Below, piece by piece: positions 35,638-52,119 of a stretch of DNA of 64,000 bases. The translations under genes and the position numbers were made by a program. The stretch is from Shigella phage JK32, in sequence record MK962753.1; one strand, given 5' to 3'. Below the pieces are notes generated by a model. The model was not told the DNA's origin, did not search any database, and saw only the letters and a list, made by a program, of their open reading frames with translations. How positions within the stretch are numbered: position 1 is the stretch's first letter; each line of letters starts with the position of its first letter.

Positions 35638-37224
35638 ATGAAAACTACCAAAGAACTGATGGAAAAATGGTCTCCGCTGCTGGAAAACGAAAAACTGCCG
35701 GAGATTGCAACCGCATCTAAACAGAAACTGGTTGCTAAAATTCTGGAATCTCAGGAAGCAGATTTTGCAGTAGATCCGATTTATAAAGATGAGAAAGTAG
35801 TAGAAGCGTTTGGTGGCTTTATCACCGAAGCAGAAGTTGCTGGCGACCACGGTTACGATGCTTCCAAAATTGCCGCAGGTCAGACTACTGGCGCAATCAC
35901 CAACGTAGGTCCGGCTGTTATCGGTATGGTTCGTCGTGCTATCCCTAACCTGATCGCATTTGACATTTGCGGCGTTCAGCCGATGAGCACCCCGACTAGC
36001 CAGATCTTTGCAATCCGTTCCGTATATGGTGGCGATCCGCTGAAAGAGGGTGCTAAAGAAGCATTCCATCCGATGTATTCCCCGGATGCGTTCCATAGCT
36101 CTCTAGCTGCTAAAGATGCAACCGCTGCTAACCCGGTAGGTACTGCATTCGCTAAACTGACTATGAATACTGCAATCAATGGAGGTGATATTGTTCATCA
36201 CACCTTTGCAGAAACTGGTATTGCATATCTGCAAAACGTAAGCAGTCAGGCTGTTACCCCGTCTAAACAGGGTCAGGAATCCGACGATGAAGCAGTAATG
36301 AAACTGATCGAAGAAGGCAAACTGGCTGAAATCGCACACGGTATGGCTACTTCCATCGCGGAACTGCAAGAAGGCTTTAACGGTTCCCAGAATAACCCGT
36401 GGAACGAAATGTCAATGCGTATTGACAAACAGGTTGTTGAAGCGAAATCTCGTCAACTGAAAGCCCGTTATTCTATCGAAGTTGCTCAGGATCTGCGTGC
36501 TGTACACGGTATGGACGCTGACGCCGAATTGAATGCTATCCTGGCTAACGAAGTTCTGCTGGAAATCAACCGTGAAATCGTTGACGTAATCAACTTTACC
36601 GCTCAGGTTGGTAAGACTGGCATGACTCAGACCGTTGGTTCTAAAGCTGGTGTATTCGATCTGCAAGATCCGATTGATACCCGTGGTGCTCGTTGGGCTG
36701 GTGAATCCTTCAAATCTCTGATCTACCAGATTGACAAAGAAGCTGCTGAAATCGCTCGTCAGACTGGTCGCGGTGCTGGTAACTTCATTATCGCTTCCCG
36801 TAACGTTGTAAACATTCTGGCTTCTGCTGATCAGGGTATTAGCGTAGCAATGCAGGGCGCTGCTCGTGGTCTGAATACCGACACCACTAAAGCTGTTTTC
36901 GCTGGTGTTCTGGCTGGTAAGTATAAAGTATTCATCGACCAGTATGCTCGTCAGGACTACTTCACCGTAGGTTACAAAGGCGACAACGAAATGGATGCTG
37001 GTATCTACTACGCACCGTATGTTGCTCTGACTCCGCTGCGTGCAACTGATCCGCAGTCTTTCCACCCGGTTCTGGGCTTCAAGACTCGTTACGGTATCGG
37101 TATTAACCCGTTTGCTGATAGCAAGTCTCAGTATCCGAGTGCTCGTATCACTTCCGGTATGTTGAGCAAAGAAAGCGTAGGTAAAAACGCTTACTTCCGC
37201 CGCGTATGGGTGAAAGGTTGCTAA
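35638..37224 (+). CDS. 23: major capsid protein
   Basis: 528 aa; long stretches near-identical to T4 gp23 (e.g. RRAIPNLIAFDICGVQPM, GMATSIAELQEGFNGS, GIYYAPYVALTPLR); T4-biased codon usage. Confidence 0.95.
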   Translation: MKTTKELMEKWSPLLENEKLPEIATASKQKLVAKILESQEADFAVDPIYKDEKVVEAFGGFITEAEVAGDHGYDASKIAAGQTTGAITNVGPAVIGMVRRAIPNLIAFDICGVQPMSTPTSQIFAIRSVYGGDPLKEGAKEAFHPMYSPDAFHSSLAAKDATAANPVGTAFAKLTMNTAINGGDIVHHTFAETGIAYLQNVSSQAVTPSKQGQESDDEAVMKLIEEGKLAEIAHGMATSIAELQEGFNGSQNNPWNEMSMRIDKQVVEAKSRQLKARYSIEVAQDLRAVHGMDADAELNAILANEVLLEINREIVDVINFTAQVGKTGMTQTVGSKAGVFDLQDPIDTRGARWAGESFKSLIYQIDKEAAEIARQTGRGAGNFIIASRNVVNILASADQGISVAMQGAARGLNTDTTKAVFAGVLAGKYKVFIDQYARQDYFTVGYKGDNEMDAGIYYAPYVALTPLRATDPQSFHPVLGFKTRYGIGINPFADSKSQYPSARITSGMLSKESVGKNAYFRRVWVKGC

Positions 37225-42530: not shown

Positions 42531-43772
42531 ATGGCACAGATTTTCAATGAACTGTTAAAGGAATCGACTTCCTCAGTAGCAAACCAGACAGCAAGACCAC
42601 AATTATTGGCACTTACCCGCGCGGTTAACAACCTGATTTTCTCCGATCTGGTGGCAATTCAGCCAACAAATCAGCCTATTTGTGCATTATTCGGACTTCG
42701 TTATGTTAACCGTGATGGTCAAATGACTTATCGTACCGCAGGAACGTATGGTGGTGCGGCTGGTAATCGTGATGTTTTTGAAGATTTTCAGAAAGATAAA
42801 GAATATCAGGTCGGTGATCATTTCAAATTTGATAATGTTGTATATGAAGTGATTACAGAAGGTGCAGTAGGACAGGATATTTCTACCGAAGAAGAAGCGA
42901 TCTTTAAGGGAGTAGTGTCAAATAAAATTCGTTTCTTTAGTGATTATGCACCGACTGAATATTTCGAAGATGCAAACACTGAAATTTCTACTACCGATTT
43001 TGATTTTGAAAAATGGCAAGTTAATGTCGGATCTCGTAAACTGAAAACAGAATTTACTACCGAATTGATGCAAGACCTGGAAGCAAACCAGATGAACTCT
43101 GAAAATACCGTTTTGGATCTTCTTGCTACCGTTGCATCCGAAGAAATCAATAAAGATATTATCCAGAAACTGATTACGGTATCAACTCGTTATAAAGTTA
43201 AGAGCATTACACCTGATGGCGTTCTTTCACTGGTTAACGTTCAGGACGCACCAGCACAAGCGCGTGAACTTTATCGCTATGCATGTGAAATGAGTAATCA
43301 AATGCTTCGCACTTCGTCTTTCGGTGGTACTTATGTTCTTGCATCTTCTCGTGTTGTTGGCCTCCTGCAAGCTAGTGGCTGGATGGAAGAAACTGACAAT
43401 GCACTAAGTGAAGGTCGTTTACGTTGTGGTTTAGAAGTTTATGCGGACACTGTAACCCCGTTTGATTATATGATCGTTGGTTGTAAGCATATGGTTGGTG
43501 ATATGGAGAGCGTAGGTTCTCTGTTCTACTCCCCATATACAGAATCAGACGGAGCGGGTGCATATAAGAGCATCATCGATCCTAATAGCTTCAACCATAA
43601 AGTAGCGATTATGAATAGATATGCTCTTTCTGTCAACCCATACACAACCAAAGCTGATCAAGAAAACAACCAAGTAATCAAGGGTGACGAGTGGGGCAAA
43701 CTTGCCGGACGTTCAGAAATGTCCTACATGCTGGGTATAGAACTGCCACCGCTTGAGATTGACAACGCTTAA
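42531..43772 (+). CDS. 24: head vertex protein
   Basis: 413 aa; N-terminus MAQIFNELLKESTSS...LLALTRAV closely resembles T4 gp24; paralog of gp23. Confidence 0.9.
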   Translation: MAQIFNELLKESTSSVANQTARPQLLALTRAVNNLIFSDLVAIQPTNQPICALFGLRYVNRDGQMTYRTAGTYGGAAGNRDVFEDFQKDKEYQVGDHFKFDNVVYEVITEGAVGQDISTEEEAIFKGVVSNKIRFFSDYAPTEYFEDANTEISTTDFDFEKWQVNVGSRKLKTEFTTELMQDLEANQMNSENTVLDLLATVASEEINKDIIQKLITVSTRYKVKSITPDGVLSLVNVQDAPAQARELYRYACEMSNQMLRTSSFGGTYVLASSRVVGLLQASGWMEETDNALSEGRLRCGLEVYADTVTPFDYMIVGCKHMVGDMESVGSLFYSPYTESDGAGAYKSIIDPNSFNHKVAIMNRYALSVNPYTTKADQENNQVIKGDEWGKLAGRSEMSYMLGIELPPLEIDNA

Positions 43773-45850: not shown

Positions 45851-45878
45851 ATTATAAGCCACTAAATCACACTGTCAA
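45851..45878 (-). promoter_or_regulatory. sigma70 consensus promoter (TTGACA-16-TATAAT)
   Basis: Perfect hexamers on minus strand immediately downstream of the terminator hairpin. Confidence 0.55.
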
Positions 45879-45884
45879 GCACTA

Positions 45885-45914
45885 AAAACAAAAAAGCCAC
45901 CCCGAAGGATGGCT
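45885..45914 (-). terminator. rho-independent terminator after hoc paralog
   Basis: AGCCACCCCGAAGGATGGCT hairpin with long T-run on minus strand. Confidence 0.55.
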
Positions 45915-45925
45915 GATAGATTTCA

Positions 45926-47167
45926 TTAAGCAGGAGGCGTTTCACGAATGCGTAGAACTCGCTCTAACGTCTCTCGGTCCAGTTTATGGAAATCTTTGGA
46001 CTGATACATGAAACCATTGCGAGATTCCATGCAAGTGCAATCACTATATTTTTCTTCCGCTGCTGCGATCGTCTCCAGATCTTTGGCGTACTTGCTGGTT
46101 GAATAAACTTCTCGGTGACGCCACTCTAAACCAGCCTCATTGAATTTAACAATCTCGTCAAATACCCACCATCCAATATAGATGAATGAAGTTTTGCGCC
46201 ACGGGATCGGGTGCACGTAACGGAACATTTTATGAAGAGATTCAACAACTTCCATTGAACACTTTCTGCTTGTATGTGCTGCAACTTCTACTGTTGCGCT
46301 TTCGATCTGTTGGTATAATTTAGCAACACACCAGAATTTGGCTGTGTCATCGTAAGTAGCACGCTCTTTGAACAGATGACCGTCTGGCATGATAGAAAAT
46401 CCTTCCAGTGCTTCGCCGACCTCACTACCGATCAGAGTCGGTGACGGCTGTCCTTCACGTTGCAAATACCAGTTATGTTTGATAGTCAATTTAGGCATAC
46501 CGCTAGAATCGCCTACAATGTCCTCTGATACAACATAATTAAGTAAGATTTCCTTACCTAGTGCTACGGTCTTTGATTCCACCACATCCTGATCTACGCT
46601 CATTGTAGCCAGCATGATTTTAGTCGATGCACTATCGGCTGAATCTTCCGATTCGCCCCATACTTTGACAGTATACACACCGTTGTTATCTGCTGTAAAT
46701 TCTTGGATCGTGATATCCTGTGTTGTGTCTATAACTTCTTCGCCCTTACTCCAACTATAATGTAGTTCATAGTTGTCTGTTGGAGTCTTCCCGCCAGAGA
46801 ATTTGACGGTTGCGTGTAATTCTACGTCTGTGTGAGTAGGAACATAGAATTGCGGCGGTTCGGTGATCTTAACGATTAATTCAGCTTCTTCCATACGGAA
46901 AACGTCAGATTCTACAGATTCCCCGCTGTCGGTATCTTGTACGGTGACTTTATAGTTACCCGCATTTTCACTTGTTGCACCTGCTACAGTTAGCGTAGCG
47001 GTGTTATTTTCATGCGGTTTGTTGTCTTTTGTCCATGTATAGGACAAATTGCTGGGTAATGGTTCGTCACCTGCTACAGTCGCTGTTAATGTGAAACCAT
47101 CTCCAGCAAGAAAACATCTTTTGTTCGATTTAATTGATACTGTGAAAGCCATATAAAGCCACTCCAT
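45926..47167 (-). CDS. hoc: Hoc-like outer capsid decoration protein (paralog 1)
   Basis: 413 aa; Ig-like repeats; C-terminal YVHPIPWRKTSFIYIGWWVFDEI...ESRNGF matches the T4 Hoc capsid-binding C-terminus. Confidence 0.7.
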   Translation of the reverse strand: MEWLYMAFTVSIKSNKRCFLAGDGFTLTATVAGDEPLPSNLSYTWTKDNKPHENNTATLTVAGATSENAGNYKVTVQDTDSGESVESDVFRMEEAELIVKITEPPQFYVPTHTDVELHATVKFSGGKTPTDNYELHYSWSKGEEVIDTTQDITIQEFTADNNGVYTVKVWGESEDSADSASTKIMLATMSVDQDVVESKTVALGKEILLNYVVSEDIVGDSSGMPKLTIKHNWYLQREGQPSPTLIGSEVGEALEGFSIMPDGHLFKERATYDDTAKFWCVAKLYQQIESATVEVAAHTSRKCSMEVVESLHKMFRYVHPIPWRKTSFIYIGWWVFDEIVKFNEAGLEWRHREVYSTSKYAKDLETIAAAEEKYSDCTCMESRNGFMYQSKDFHKLDRETLERVLRIRETPPA

Positions 47168-47191
47168 ATAAAAGCCGACCCGAAGGTCGGC
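47168..47191 (-). terminator. rho-independent terminator between hoc paralogs
   Basis: GCCGACCCGAAGGTCGGC hairpin with T-run on minus strand. Confidence 0.5.
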
Positions 47192-47201
47192 GTTTAATTA
47201 A

Positions 47202-49742
47202 TTAAAATAGTTGAGTACCATCAACCAGATAACCATTACGAGATTCCAATACATGAGTATTAGAATAGTGATGCAACGAGGCTGCAATAGTCTCGATCTC
47301 GTCCGGGTATTTGGTGTGTTCAAAGTCTTCTAACCAGTTAAGCCCTTCGCGGTTGCAACGGTCAATTTCATCAAGTACCCAATAGCCTTGATACTGGAAC
47401 GAAGTACGACGCCACGGAATCGGGTGTACATAGCGTTTTAATTTCGCGGTAGTAAACACTACACGAACTTTTTCACTATGTTTAACATGTCCTTCGTCGT
47501 CAGTAACTTCTGCATAATAGGTTGCTTGATGTGTCTCCTTGCTAATTTGTTCTTTAGGAATAGTATACACCTTACTATTCGCGCCAGGAATAACAGTATC
47601 TTTACCGCCCTGAATTTTATGCCACTTCCATTGAACTTCTTTTTCATCATCAACGTGTTCGGCATGAGCTTCTAAGGTAATATCCTGTTTCTGTCCTTCT
47701 TTAGCAACCACATCCACCGGATGTTTCAGAATATTGATATTTGAATGATGAGTCATTGTCACTAATGCAGGATTAGATTCAATGGTATTCTCACCAGCCG
47801 TAATTACCGCTGTGTAGCTGCCTACGTCAGACGGTTTTGCGTGATCAATAATCAACACATCTGAATTTGCACCAGGAATAATTTCACCGTCTTTTTTCCA
47901 TTGATATGATGGTTTAATACCAATAGATGTTTGTGCGGCAGCGTGTAACATAATTTTTTCATTATATTTCACATGCGCATCTTGTGGGTGAGTTGTTATT
48001 GCTAGGTCATTTGGAACAACCGTTACATCGTCGGAGATCAACACCCTAACCGCTTCTGACATTTTAGAAACTCGATGTTCACCGAATCCAGCCGATACAC
48101 GGCATGTATAAACGCCAGTAGATGTTAATTGTGCATGATCTTCGCCATATACATTTCGTTGTTCAATTCCTGCTGGGAAAAGATCCTCACCATCTTTAAA
48201 CCAACGGTAACGAACTGGCAAAGCATCATTAGACGTTGCCTTGATGGTAAGCGCCCATTGTCCACCGGAGCGAACTTTAACTGCTTTCGGTTGTACAGTG
48301 ATCTCTAACGTTGCCTTTGAGTTATCAACTGTCACCTGAACTGCATTAGACTCAGCCGAAATTCTGTGATTCTGGATACCCATAGAAACTTTACATTTAT
48401 ATTGACCTTCGTCTGCTTTAGTGATTGAGGAAAAATGCAAAGTTTTAGATGTTTTTCCAGGAATCAACTCATCATTTTTATACCACTGATAATCAAGTTT
48501 ATAATGTTCGTAGTCTGTCTCTGCTTCACAAATAAGAGTTTGTGAGGAACTAACTCGAACATTGGTTAACTGCTGTGGTTGTTGAGTGATTCGAATTGTT
48601 GGCGCAGCACCGACAAGAAGATCCGCTTCTTGTGATTCTGAAACCATATTATCACCGTAAGTCACTTTTGCTTTATATTTCGCCTGATTTAATTCCGCAG
48701 TTGCTGGTGCAATGTGGAGATCTTTATTAGTTGCGCCAACAATTGGTTTAAATTCATCTTCACCATTTTTCTTGATGTACCATTGAACTTTTACTGGTTC
48801 ATAGTTTGTTGCATAATCAACACTGAACAAACCTAAAGCACCAGCACCCACATTTATTGTGAGTGGTTGTTTAGTGAATCGAAAGAACGATCGACCTTCG
48901 ACTGTAACGTGACAATCTTTTGAATAGATCGTTGTTTCTGCTTGACGAACTTCAAGACGCCATACACCCTCGTCTTTTTTCGTGACGTGGGTTATAGTTA
49001 ATGCAGTGCCGTCTTGATCCAACACCATCCTATCGTTGTGAATCCACACATATGATAAAGGACGAGTTTTGTCATCGGTTGTCACCTGTGCTTGTAGTTC
49101 AAGTCTTCCATCTTCTGGAACTGTAACCGCTGATGGGTAATGTTCCTGAATATGAACTTTAGGAGCATCTTTATTTTGTTCCACTACTACAGGACTGATC
49201 CAATAGTGAGAACGTGCATCATCGGTAACAAATACCTTACAAGTATAGTTGCCAAAATCCTCATAACCAACTCGATCTACATGCACGTTTTTTTGACGGA
49301 TTTTATCTGGATTTAACTGAATGTGGTTTTTATACCAAATAGTATCAAATTGCTTGTTATCTTCGATGAACGGAGTAACAAAAATATCCAATTCTTCGCC
49401 TAAACGCTTATAAATGTAGGTCGGAGATTGATCCTGTGGTGCAAGGAAGGTGCGACGTTCAACAAGAATAGGCTTAATATCAACCGATTCAAGCGGATTA
49501 TCTTTCAGCTTAACTTTCGCTGTATACGTGCCGAATTGATCTTGAGTCATTTCAGCAATATACAGAGATTGATCTGGTTCTGCAACCTGATCTGATGGTA
49601 CGCTTTGACCGTTTAGCTTCCATTCTACGATATAGTCTTTAAAATCTGCGGTACTTACTACGAGCTTAAGAACAAGTTCATGTCCTACAGACGCGTAGAC
49701 CGGACCCATAGTTTGATGTAAAATATTGATTTTATCAGACAT
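47202..49742 (-). CDS. hoc: Hoc-like outer capsid decoration protein, expanded (paralog 2)
   Basis: 846 aa; multiple tandem Ig-like segments; C-terminal LKRYVHPIPWRRTSFQYQGYWVLDEI...ESRNGY Hoc-type domain. Confidence 0.7.
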   Translation of the reverse strand: MSDKINILHQTMGPVYASVGHELVLKLVVSTADFKDYIVEWKLNGQSVPSDQVAEPDQSLYIAEMTQDQFGTYTAKVKLKDNPLESVDIKPILVERRTFLAPQDQSPTYIYKRLGEELDIFVTPFIEDNKQFDTIWYKNHIQLNPDKIRQKNVHVDRVGYEDFGNYTCKVFVTDDARSHYWISPVVVEQNKDAPKVHIQEHYPSAVTVPEDGRLELQAQVTTDDKTRPLSYVWIHNDRMVLDQDGTALTITHVTKKDEGVWRLEVRQAETTIYSKDCHVTVEGRSFFRFTKQPLTINVGAGALGLFSVDYATNYEPVKVQWYIKKNGEDEFKPIVGATNKDLHIAPATAELNQAKYKAKVTYGDNMVSESQEADLLVGAAPTIRITQQPQQLTNVRVSSSQTLICEAETDYEHYKLDYQWYKNDELIPGKTSKTLHFSSITKADEGQYKCKVSMGIQNHRISAESNAVQVTVDNSKATLEITVQPKAVKVRSGGQWALTIKATSNDALPVRYRWFKDGEDLFPAGIEQRNVYGEDHAQLTSTGVYTCRVSAGFGEHRVSKMSEAVRVLISDDVTVVPNDLAITTHPQDAHVKYNEKIMLHAAAQTSIGIKPSYQWKKDGEIIPGANSDVLIIDHAKPSDVGSYTAVITAGENTIESNPALVTMTHHSNINILKHPVDVVAKEGQKQDITLEAHAEHVDDEKEVQWKWHKIQGGKDTVIPGANSKVYTIPKEQISKETHQATYYAEVTDDEGHVKHSEKVRVVFTTAKLKRYVHPIPWRRTSFQYQGYWVLDEIDRCNREGLNWLEDFEHTKYPDEIETIAASLHHYSNTHVLESRNGYLVDGTQLF

Positions 49743-49820
49743 GTAATATCCTCTTTTTTAATTGCATAACGGAACTACAATTAAAAACATAACAAATATT
49801 TCACAACTTTTACACTCTTA

Positions 49821-50546
49821 TTATTTAAGCGTGTGGAATTGGCTGTGTTTAGTCTCTCGCACCTTGACAGACCCATCGCGTTTGATATAATAGATCAGTG
49901 ACTTGAGGGTGTCGTGTACATACGCGTGCGGGAAACGTTCTGGATACTTCTTCCAATCTGGAGTATTAACGATCCAGTCGAAAATCCACCACGGGCAGGA
50001 GTAGTAACCACGACCGCCACCGATCAAGCAAATGGTCGGACGGAAACCAGTAAGATCGCAAAATGAGTCAGTGTCATGTGCTGGGGAACGATGCTCTGCT
50101 TCGTCAGAGAAAATGTTTGCTACCGGAGATTCCGCTTTAACTTCCGATGCTTCTTCAAAATCTAACTTAACTTCTTCGACCACTGGTTCAACTGCTGGAG
50201 ATTCTTCTTTTGTTTCTTCAATGACGATCTCAGGTTCTTTCATTGCTTCAACCAGAGACGGATCAACTTCGTCGAATACCACTTTATCATCTGCGGTGTC
50301 TGCTGCCAGAATAAGATCGTTAATACTGGTTCCCTCTTCTGGGGTTTCTTCTTCCATTTCGGACGCCAGTTTAGTTAATTCGGTTTCTACGAACTCGATC
50401 ATATTCTCTAGCGAGAGCGTCTTTTTGACCTTGATATCAAATTGTTTTGCGTAGTCCGCTAATTCTGTTTTAGCGGTTTTCTGTGCTTCTTTGTCGTCGG
50501 ACGCCGCAATAGCGCGGAGTTCTTCGAAATATTCTTTATCAAACAT
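49821..50546 (-). CDS. acidic protein with Hoc-like C-terminal domain; positional equivalent of T4 inh
   Basis: 241 aa; acidic N-terminal half; C-terminal YSCPWWIFDWI resembles Hoc C-terminal WCGWWVMDEI. Confidence 0.4.
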   Translation of the reverse strand: MFDKEYFEELRAIAASDDKEAQKTAKTELADYAKQFDIKVKKTLSLENMIEFVETELTKLASEMEEETPEEGTSINDLILAADTADDKVVFDEVDPSLVEAMKEPEIVIEETKEESPAVEPVVEEVKLDFEEASEVKAESPVANIFSDEAEHRSPAHDTDSFCDLTGFRPTICLIGGGRGYYSCPWWIFDWIVNTPDWKKYPERFPHAYVHDTLKSLIYYIKRDGSVKVRETKHSQFHTLK

Positions 50547-50580: not shown

Positions 50581-50601
50581 TTTGTATACTGTATTTATTG
50601 A

Positions 50602-52119
50602 GTGAGGCTATTCGCTATGCAAGATATTAAAATTCACTTTCTGAACTACTCTCATGTTCAAATTGAATGTAGCGATTCAATTTTATTAGAAATGCGAGAT
50701 TATTTTAGTTTTGAAGTCGAGGGAGCGCGGTTTCAAAAAAGATTTAAGTATGGTGGATGGGATGGGCGTATTCGTCTTTTAGATTACAATGGAAAGCTGC
50801 CAATCGGCCTAACTAAAACCGTGGGAATCTTCGCTAAAAATATGGGCTATAGCGTATGGGTAGACCCTCGCTTATTCGAAAAAGAACAAGTTACAGAAGA
50901 AGAAATTACAAAATGGTGTAATGATCTGGAATTATATTCCGGTGCTAACAGGATCACCCCGCATTGGTATCAATCAAAGGCTGTCTTTGAAGGTATTCAT
51001 CATAAACGCCGTATGTTAGTTTTGCCTACGTCCGCTGGTAAATCTGCGATTGCTTGTATGTTGTCTCGCTGGTACTTAGAGAACTACGAAGGGAAAGTGC
51101 TGATCATCGTTCCTACCACGTCGCTAGTGCTGCAAATGCGTGATGATTTTGTTGATTATCGCCAGTTTCCTTATGAAGCAATTCATACTATCATGAGCGG
51201 TACTAGTAAACACGTAGGTGATCGCCTGATCGTTGTTAGTACATGGCAATCTGCATGTAAACAGCCTCGTGAGTGGTTCCAACAATTTGGGATGGTAATT
51301 GTTGATGAATGTCACAAGGCCACTGCTAAAAACCTGCTAAACATCGTTACTGATATGGATCATTGCCAATTTAAGATCGGCATGACTGGTTCCCCTCGTG
51401 ACGGGAAAGCTAACATGATGCAGTATGTCGGGCTTTTCGGTGATATTTCTAAGATCGTGAGTATTGACCGCCTGATGGAAGAAGGTCAAGTGACAAAACT
51501 GAAAATTAACTGTCTTTTCCTTCGTTATACCGATGAGGAATGTAGCGCGGTTAAGGGGAGAGAATATGCGGAAGAGATCAAGTATATTACATCTAACCCA
51601 CGACGAAATAAGTTTGCTTGCAATTTGGCGCTAAAACTCGCTAAGAAGGGCGAAAACGTATTCCTTATGTTCCGCAATACTAAGCACGGAAAACTTATGT
51701 ATGACGCGTTACAGAAGGTACACGACAAGGTTTATTATATTGACGGTGGAGTTAAGACAGAAGAACGTGATGAATTTAAGAAAATGGCGGAGGGTGACAC
51801 CGGGATCATTTGTGTTGCGTCTTATGGTGTGTTCTCTACTGGTGTTTCCATCAAGAACTTGCACCATGTTATTTTCGGGCATCCAGTTAAAGAATCAACC
51901 ATTGTTAGACAGAGTATCGGTCGTGCATTGCGTAAACATGGTTCTAAGGATATTGCTACCGTTTGGGATCTTATCGATCATTTGGCGGTTAAGACAAAGA
52001 GCAAGAATGCTAAGAAACAGTTTAGCCACCTTAATTATGCTCTTAAACATGCGCTTTTGAGGATACAGCTTTACAATACCGATAAATTTGAGTATGCTAC
52101 CAAGACTATAGAAATCTAA
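50602..52119 (+). CDS. uvsW: UvsW DNA/RNA helicase
   Basis: 505 aa; collinear with T4 UvsW (PTSAGKS Walker A, DECH box, HFLNYSHVQIECS N-terminus). Confidence 0.9.
   Translation: MRLFAMQDIKIHFLNYSHVQIECSDSILLEMRDYFSFEVEGARFQKRFKYGGWDGRIRLLDYNGKLPIGLTKTVGIFAKNMGYSVWVDPRLFEKEQVTEEEITKWCNDLELYSGANRITPHWYQSKAVFEGIHHKRRMLVLPTSAGKSAIACMLSRWYLENYEGKVLIIVPTTSLVLQMRDDFVDYRQFPYEAIHTIMSGTSKHVGDRLIVVSTWQSACKQPREWFQQFGMVIVDECHKATAKNLLNIVTDMDHCQFKIGMTGSPRDGKANMMQYVGLFGDISKIVSIDRLMEEGQVTKLKINCLFLRYTDEECSAVKGREYAEEIKYITSNPRRNKFACNLALKLAKKGENVFLMFRNTKHGKLMYDALQKVHDKVYYIDGGVKTEERDEFKKMAEGDTGIICVASYGVFSTGVSIKNLHHVIFGHPVKESTIVRQSIGRALRKHGSKDIATVWDLIDHLAVKTKSKNAKKQFSHLNYALKHALLRIQLYNTDKFEYATKTIEI

Follow-up and report, generated by a model that had tools for sequence, protein, structure and literature searches.

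Shigella phage JK32 encodes two bona fide Hoc paralogues that combine a common capsid-binding module with different arrays of immunoglobulin (Ig)-like domains, and the C-terminal domain of the neighboring Inh protein is, across its family and including T4 Inh, a diverged homologue of that same module with the same fold. For the locus as a whole, the explanation that we consider probable is an ancestral three-gene inh-hoc head-accessory cluster of the T4 type, whose three products end in one ancestral domain of ~80 residues, with the two Hocs competing and having their alleles swapped and Inh carrying an anchor homologue.

The window, the whole stretch of 64,000 nucleotides that was analyzed, is Krischvirus (RB49-like) DNA from sequence record MK962753.1. 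The original prediction had described three minus-strand ORFs of 413, 846, and 241 aa, all of which were confirmed at their positions, and the locus is composed of the following features:

42531-43772: gp24-like vertex gene, member of the cluster
45926-47167, minus strand: short Hoc ORF, 413 aa as the longest ORF
45926..47152, minus strand: hoc, 408 aa from its probable start at 47152, three Ig-like domains and a capsid-binding domain
45929..46243, minus strand: capsid-binding C-domain of short Hoc, residues 304-408 in the 408-aa numbering (RYVHPIPWRKTSFIYIGWWVFDEI...MESRNGF)
47202-49742, minus strand: long hoc, 846 aa, eight Ig-like domains and a Hoc capsid-binding domain
47205..47447, minus strand: capsid-binding C-domain of long Hoc, residues 766-846 (RYVHPIPWRRTSFQYQGYWVLDEI...LESRNGY)
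47448..49742, minus strand: eight-Ig array of long Hoc, residues 2-93, 97-188, 193-282, 284-378, 380-474, 476-570, 577-664, and 665-764
49821-50546, minus strand: inh, 241 aa
49824..50060, minus strand: C-terminal domain of Inh, residues 163-241 (PWWIFDWI...DWK and VKVRETKHS; family consensus IRETRNS)
50602-52119: uvsW, member of the cluster

Both hoc ORFs are placed as in the T4 cluster that runs from gene 24 to hoc-inh-uvsW, matching the T4 gene order, and inh has its T4 position, divergently oriented to uvsW and upstream of hoc. In divergent contigs, too, inh is followed by long hoc and then by short hoc.

The short gene encodes a canonical Hoc. Its true start is most likely the second ATG (47152, M6), giving a protein of 408 aa, because a GGAG lies 9 nt upstream of this codon, the solved RB49 Hoc fragment (3SHS) begins with MAFTV, and the SSG23 annotation uses the same start. 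Residues 6-308 match the three Ig domains of 3SHS (E = 6e-177), with Pfam matches to Ig_2, Ig_3, and I-set, and the protein matches phrog_1149, "Hoc-like head decoration" (1e-78), the C-domain of T4 Hoc (E = 1e-15), and PDB entries 5vf3/8t1x (E = 3e-12). The anchor motifs YVHPIPWR, GWWVFDEI, and ESRNG are all found.

The long gene has a Shine-Dalgarno sequence (AGAGGA) 7 nt before its ATG, and its product matches Ig_3 (1e-39), Ig_2 (4e-32), and I-set (1e-24) in Pfam. A repeat HMM resolves eight tiled Ig units, and AlphaFold2 predicts an all-beta structure to residue 763 with pLDDT ~75-93; the C-domain of this model has a pLDDT of 26-58, and the model served for Ig counting alone. The C-domain itself is identified by an HMM (E = 2e-44), by matches to the T4 Hoc C-domain (E = 3e-17) and phrog_1149 (3.5e-52), and by the motifs YVHPIPWR, GYWVLDEI, and ESRNGY. 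Thirteen full-length relatives are 841-847 aa long with 60-97% identity, and at least 142 member sequences are found in metagenome assemblies. The C-domains of the two Hocs are 46% identical over 91 aa (E = 2e-23), and this reciprocal similarity together with the T4 Hoc matches bears out the expectation that both ORFs end in a T4-Hoc-type capsid-binding domain. Domain annotation likewise agrees with the prediction that the two differ in Ig-repeat number, with eight in the long form and three in the short; the long form had been credited with roughly twice the repeats of T4 Hoc, but eight vs. three amounts to ~2.7 times. The Ig units share only 22-39% identity with each other, which rules out a recent internal duplication.

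Three further features on the minus strand bear on transcription of the cluster:

50592..50599, minus strand: candidate late promoter of inh and possibly of downstream genes, AATAAATA, with one mismatch to the T4 late promoter TATAAATA
47174..47191, minus strand: GC-rich hairpin with a UUCG loop and T-run (GCCGACC-TTCG-GGTCGGC-TTTTAT), in the interval from the long hoc stop to the hoc start
45851..45914, minus strand: hairpin and T-run (45914..45895) followed by a perfect sigma-70-type promoter (45878..45851, TTGACA-N16-TATAAT)

The element AATAAATA lies 46 nt upstream of the inh start and might drive inh as a late promoter; the exact TATAAATA does not occur on the minus strand across the window, where one-mismatch variants are the only matches. 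The hairpin between the two hoc genes looks like a terminator, an attenuator, or an RNA-stabilizing structure. The element downstream of hoc is an early promoter/stem-loop cassette of the PeSL type, which closes the hoc unit and starts the early genes that follow; the cassette is conserved in six loci (L001-L005 and L038), with a PeSL-like element at the same place in a seventh (L037).

Long hoc can be dispensed with, and most cultured isolates have lost it by deletion. Besides JK32, phages with an intact locus include Brandy, SSG23, SFHK24, and UPWr_E1. The gene is intact in 4 of the 57-58 matching Krischvirus records, where it is annotated merely as "hypothetical protein," while 53/57 hold a deletion remnant that lacks an internal segment:

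47332..49636, minus strand: segment of ~2.3 kb missing from 53/57 records, with its junction at the short direct repeat AGACTTT

These nested remnants retain the first ~105 nt and the last ~130 nt of long hoc and are annotated as small hypothetical ORFs (phrog_19377, phrog_32100, and phi1 "ORFan168.1"), with the PHROG matches of the remnant families falling on long Hoc residues 1-34 and 809-846. Across dozens of Krischvirus genomes, the short "hypothetical" ORFs that separate hoc from inh, which make up two PHROG families, appear to be pseudogene fragments. Because the remnants hold the two ends of long hoc, the alternative that some genomes acquired the gene by insertion is rejected in favor of ancestral presence followed by deletion. 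The two-gene hoc state is thus ancestral in Krischvirus and has mostly been lost, so that "duplicated and expanded," as the genes had been described, does not hold as a recent event either for the locus or for the divergent Ig units.

The two hoc genes also have a history distinct from that of their surroundings. In genomes with 97-99% identity in the flanking genes, the identities of the hoc genes drop to 66-68%, and each of the two assorts independently of the other. In the Ig regions dS is ~2.2, vs. 0.07-0.23 in the flanking genes, and omega is ~0.1 in the Ig and anchor parts. Given this low omega and a dS that is saturated relative to the flanks, allele replacement is preferred and diversifying selection in situ is ruled out; judging from these substitution patterns, both hoc genes are old, divergent alleles that are held under purifying selection and swapped by recombination between near-identical genomes. 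The deep allelic divergence covers the Ig arrays and not the anchors: among 14 homologues of long Hoc, the C-domain has a mean pairwise identity of 90.5% vs. 60-74% per Ig domain, which makes the Ig array the hypervariable display part of the protein. Variable surface decoration had been anticipated at this locus, and the variability is indeed present, but its source is the exchange of old alleles and not gene number alone. Such swapping of display domains would fit the role proposed for Hoc as a non-essential adhesin or environment sensor with tuned specificity.

The contact residues through which T4 Hoc docks at the centre of the expanded gp23* hexamer have been defined structurally, and RB49 Hoc has been found experimentally to bind T4 capsids (Fokine 2023). 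Both JK32 Hocs retain the gp23* contacts of the T4 structure (Y293, H295, R300, W310, D313, and the ESRNG loop). The JK32 gp23 is 68.6% identical to that of T4, and its docking loop is identical at 17/19 positions:

36637..36693, plus strand: gp23 docking loop, GSKAGVFDLQDPIDTRGAR, equivalent to T4 gp23 Gly326-Arg344, with Asp336, Pro337, and Arg344 conserved

Since there is one site per hexamer, competition between the two Hocs is expected, and from the conservation of both partners it is likely that they compete for the hexamer centre. After capsid expansion, each Hoc would bind as one copy per hexamer at the same class of site, and virions would be decorated with both short and much longer Ig fibres, whose ratio would depend on expression level and affinity.

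Two other readings of the paired Hocs have to be weighed against stochastic competition. The diverged anchors might prefer different subsets of hexamers (for example, vertex-proximal vs. mid-section) or different orientations, resulting in patterned decoration. This would accord with the 46% identity of the anchors and with their differences at contact positions (short vs. long: W309 is W vs. Y, Q354 is M vs. L, and Y360 is F vs. Y), as well as with the dependence of Hoc orientation preference on the local capsomer environment (Fokine 2023); moreover, plain redundancy would make it harder to account for the joint retention of both paralogues in divergent lineages. However, the same conserved gp23 loop is present on all hexamers, the two anchors do not differ in their key anchoring residues, and most isolates thrive with short Hoc alone, and we regard such partitioning as improbable. 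It is more improbable still, to the point of being very unlikely, that long hoc is decaying or is not incorporated into virions and has no phenotypic consequence. Although its deletion from 53/57 records, its anonymous annotation where intact, and the failure to find a dedicated late promoter for it would be in keeping with decay, the 2.5-kb frame is intact, the 13 relatives keep their length of 841-847 aa despite identities down to 60%, and the low omega of both parts, the 90.5% conservation of the anchor, the good Shine-Dalgarno sequence, and the metagenomic members all speak against it. Competition between two functional Hocs for one site remains the preferred reading.

The third protein of the cluster is a full-length orthologue of T4 Inh (43% identity over 244 aa, E = 6e-49) and matches phrog_1051 at profile positions 1-229 of 229 (1.7e-76). 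AlphaFold2 predicts a helical N-terminal domain (residues 1-65, pLDDT ~96), an acidic linker of low confidence (66-160), and an alpha/beta C-terminal domain (161-241, pLDDT 95-98). The Pfam families Phage_Inh_N and Phage_Inh_C are found on Inh orthologues. That the C-terminal segment of this protein is related to Hoc had been proposed from the sequence of JK32, and this relationship is not significant in pairwise comparison but is well supported between family-level profiles. BLASTP of Inh against short Hoc aligns 8 residues only (WWIFDWIV, E = 0.066), and against long Hoc it gives no match. A Pfam scan of the three C-terminal fragments with E-values up to 10 returned no family, and neither did full-length Inh in the copy searched. 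Among 1.84 billion representatives, a phmmer search with Inh yielded 101 Inh-like proteins but not a single Hoc; these 101 sequences served to build an Inh profile. A profile of three Hoc anchors searched against 5.8 billion proteins returned 27 mostly short fragments, and viral contigs were used instead.

These negative searches would be compatible with a chance resemblance, or with a compositional bias centered on a short Trp-rich motif, but that explanation is effectively refuted by the profile and structural comparisons. With hhalign, the Inh and Hoc C-domains align over 67 columns with a probability of 97.7% and E = 1.4e-12; the real score is 65.1, whereas the best of 40 column shuffles reaches 15.2, and the reversal control is also clean, with control scores of ~15 or less. 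Reciprocal HMMs set both families apart from ~3,700 other ORFs: the Hoc C-domain HMM detects JK32 Inh with 17.7 bits (E = 6e-4, 3,729 ORFs) and places 34/34 Inh ORFs before any unrelated ORF, and the Inh C-domain HMM places 44/50 Hoc ORFs before noise, reaching E = 1e-5 for T4 Hoc, although its lowest scores are those against JK32's own two Hocs (9.5 and 5.6 bits). In addition, the PHROG cross-hits of Inh go to Hoc families alone. The predicted Inh C-domain adopts the fold that has been solved for the C-domain of T4 Hoc (8T1X), and independent fold searches return Hoc domains, with Foldseek E-values that are individually weak for so small a domain (0.62 in PDB and 0.014-0.2 in BFVD). Two separate motifs align with equal spacing in Inh and Hoc, and the two domains have in common W310/W187, a salt-bridge pair (D313-R357 in Hoc, D190/R233 in Inh), W325/W198, and the E-S/T-R-N loop, the Asn of which hydrogen-bonds gp23 R344 in Hoc. 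The homology of the domains, taken with the position of inh as the immediate upstream neighbor of hoc in most T4-like phages (27/34 loci here), speaks for an ancient tandem duplication.

Competition of all three proteins for one capsid site had also been proposed; it is expected for the two Hocs, but occupancy of that site on the mature capsid is not supported for Inh. In its annotation, T4 Inh is both an inhibitor of the prohead protease gp21 and a minor head protein, and Inh may accordingly differ from Hoc in its partner or in the stage at which it acts. Its C-domain may be used to dock on gp23 capsomers, a step that we infer with lower confidence, and docking may take place at the prohead stage because Inh is without the bulky beta-1 contacts that cause a clash between Hoc and unexpanded hexamers. 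Such docking would localize the N-terminal domain and the acidic linker on the shell. In its fullest form, this idea would have Inh occupy the axial region of the prohead gp23 hexamer where Hoc clashes sterically, with the tethering linking gp21 control or maturation timing to the state of the lattice, expansion or cleavage freeing the site for the Hocs, and inh and hoc having arisen by tandem duplication as stage-specific occupants of one site; taken as a whole, this scheme is speculative and on present evidence rather unlikely.

The residues that Inh has kept and lost bear on both this scheme and its main competitor. Among the Hoc contacts, the Inh family keeps Y304, W309 (as W or Y), W310, D313, E355, S/T356, R357, and N358, and does not keep Y293, H295, H299/R300, W306, Q354 (R in Inh), or G359 (S in Inh); the JK32 loop itself reads ETKHS (K233, H234), vs. 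ETRNS in the family. The Inh C-domain could be a repurposed relic that descended from a Hoc anchor and now binds gp21, a scaffold component, or the inner surface of the shell, or acts as a mere folding scaffold, without any competition with Hoc. The lost contacts would suit this view, as they include H295 and R300, which are conserved in 95 and 98% of Hoc sequences, along with Y293 and W306, and Inh has near-invariant residues of its own (G176, W191, Y219, Y220, G225, R230, and S235), so that its partner could differ; furthermore, the annotated inhibition of an internal prohead protease has no obvious need for an outer-surface site, and recent reviews of the T4 head omit Inh from the capsid-surface proteins. 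However, the elements that lie at the capsomer centre are the ones best kept in Inh (the E-S/T-R-N loop together with the D-R salt bridge by which it is shaped, and the Trp of helix 1), and some annotations, such as that of RB43, name Inh "minor capsid protein." We consider a repurposed relic to be a serious possibility that falls somewhat short of probable, and the homology of the Inh C-domain to the Hoc anchor is common to both views.

The Inh result carries more weight than the two-Hoc result, as it applies to T4 and opens a first structural and evolutionary approach to a head protein about which little is understood; apart from the C-domain of this protein, no relative of the Hoc anchor fold is known. 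The two-Hoc part is mainly a well-documented natural example of a known theme: a long adhesin fibre that is dispensable, lost in cultured isolates, and maintained in environmental genomes in the form of many old alleles. Such a fibre bears on the adherence of phages to mucus or cell surfaces and on Hoc-based display technology, and the remnants additionally correct how the short hypothetical ORFs of the hoc-inh interval are annotated.

The JK32 protein itself does not differ from T4 Inh (Phage_Inh_N, Phage_Inh_C, and phrog_1051), and what is added is the homology to the Hoc anchor. Searches of the literature, whether for a connection between Inh and Hoc or for the biology of Inh, gave no relevant result, and the Hoc structure paper gives no structural relatives for the anchor domain and does not mention Inh (Fokine 2023). 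Compared with the Hocs of T4 and RB49 (3SHS, 8T1X, and 5VF3), the long ORF is alike in architecture and in the motifs YVHPIPWR, G[WY]WV.DEI, and ESRNG. Those proteins have three Ig domains and 376-408 aa, whereas the JK32 long form has eight and 846 aa and coexists with a canonical Hoc; RB49 itself and most Krischviruses have lost long hoc with a deletion remnant left, and in JK32 it is intact. In the decoration proteins of T5 (pb10), Sf14, and Bas63, a small anchor at the hexamer centre similarly carries Ig-like domains outward, and the Ig part of short Hoc matches PDB 5lxk and 8zvi, but these anchors are unrelated in sequence to the Hoc/Inh module.

The hoc region of RB49 and phi1 has been described as plastic and associated with PeSL elements (Arbiol 2010). 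In JK32 the hoc unit is likewise closed by a PeSL cassette, but the deletion junction of long hoc falls within the coding sequence, at a direct repeat of 7 nt and not at PeSL elements, and phi1 "ORFan168.1," presented as a unique gene in that study (Arbiol 2010), appears to be the 5' remnant of long hoc. Pairs of Hocs and very long Hocs have already been described: Serratia phage Muldoon has a Hoc of 1174 aa (10 Ig) and another of 314 aa (2 Ig), and Enterobacter phage PG7 has a 233-aa Hoc and a 511-aa anchor-lipase fusion (Fokine 2023). The JK32 locus resembles these in having two proteins with one capsid-binding module and different displayed parts, and in Ig strings far beyond those of T4; it differs in belonging to the genus Krischvirus and in the tandem arrangement of its hoc genes downstream of inh. 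What is new here are the Krischvirus remnants and the exchange of old alleles, population data that add ancestral presence, recurrent nested deletion in isolates, and old-allele exchange to the known cases.

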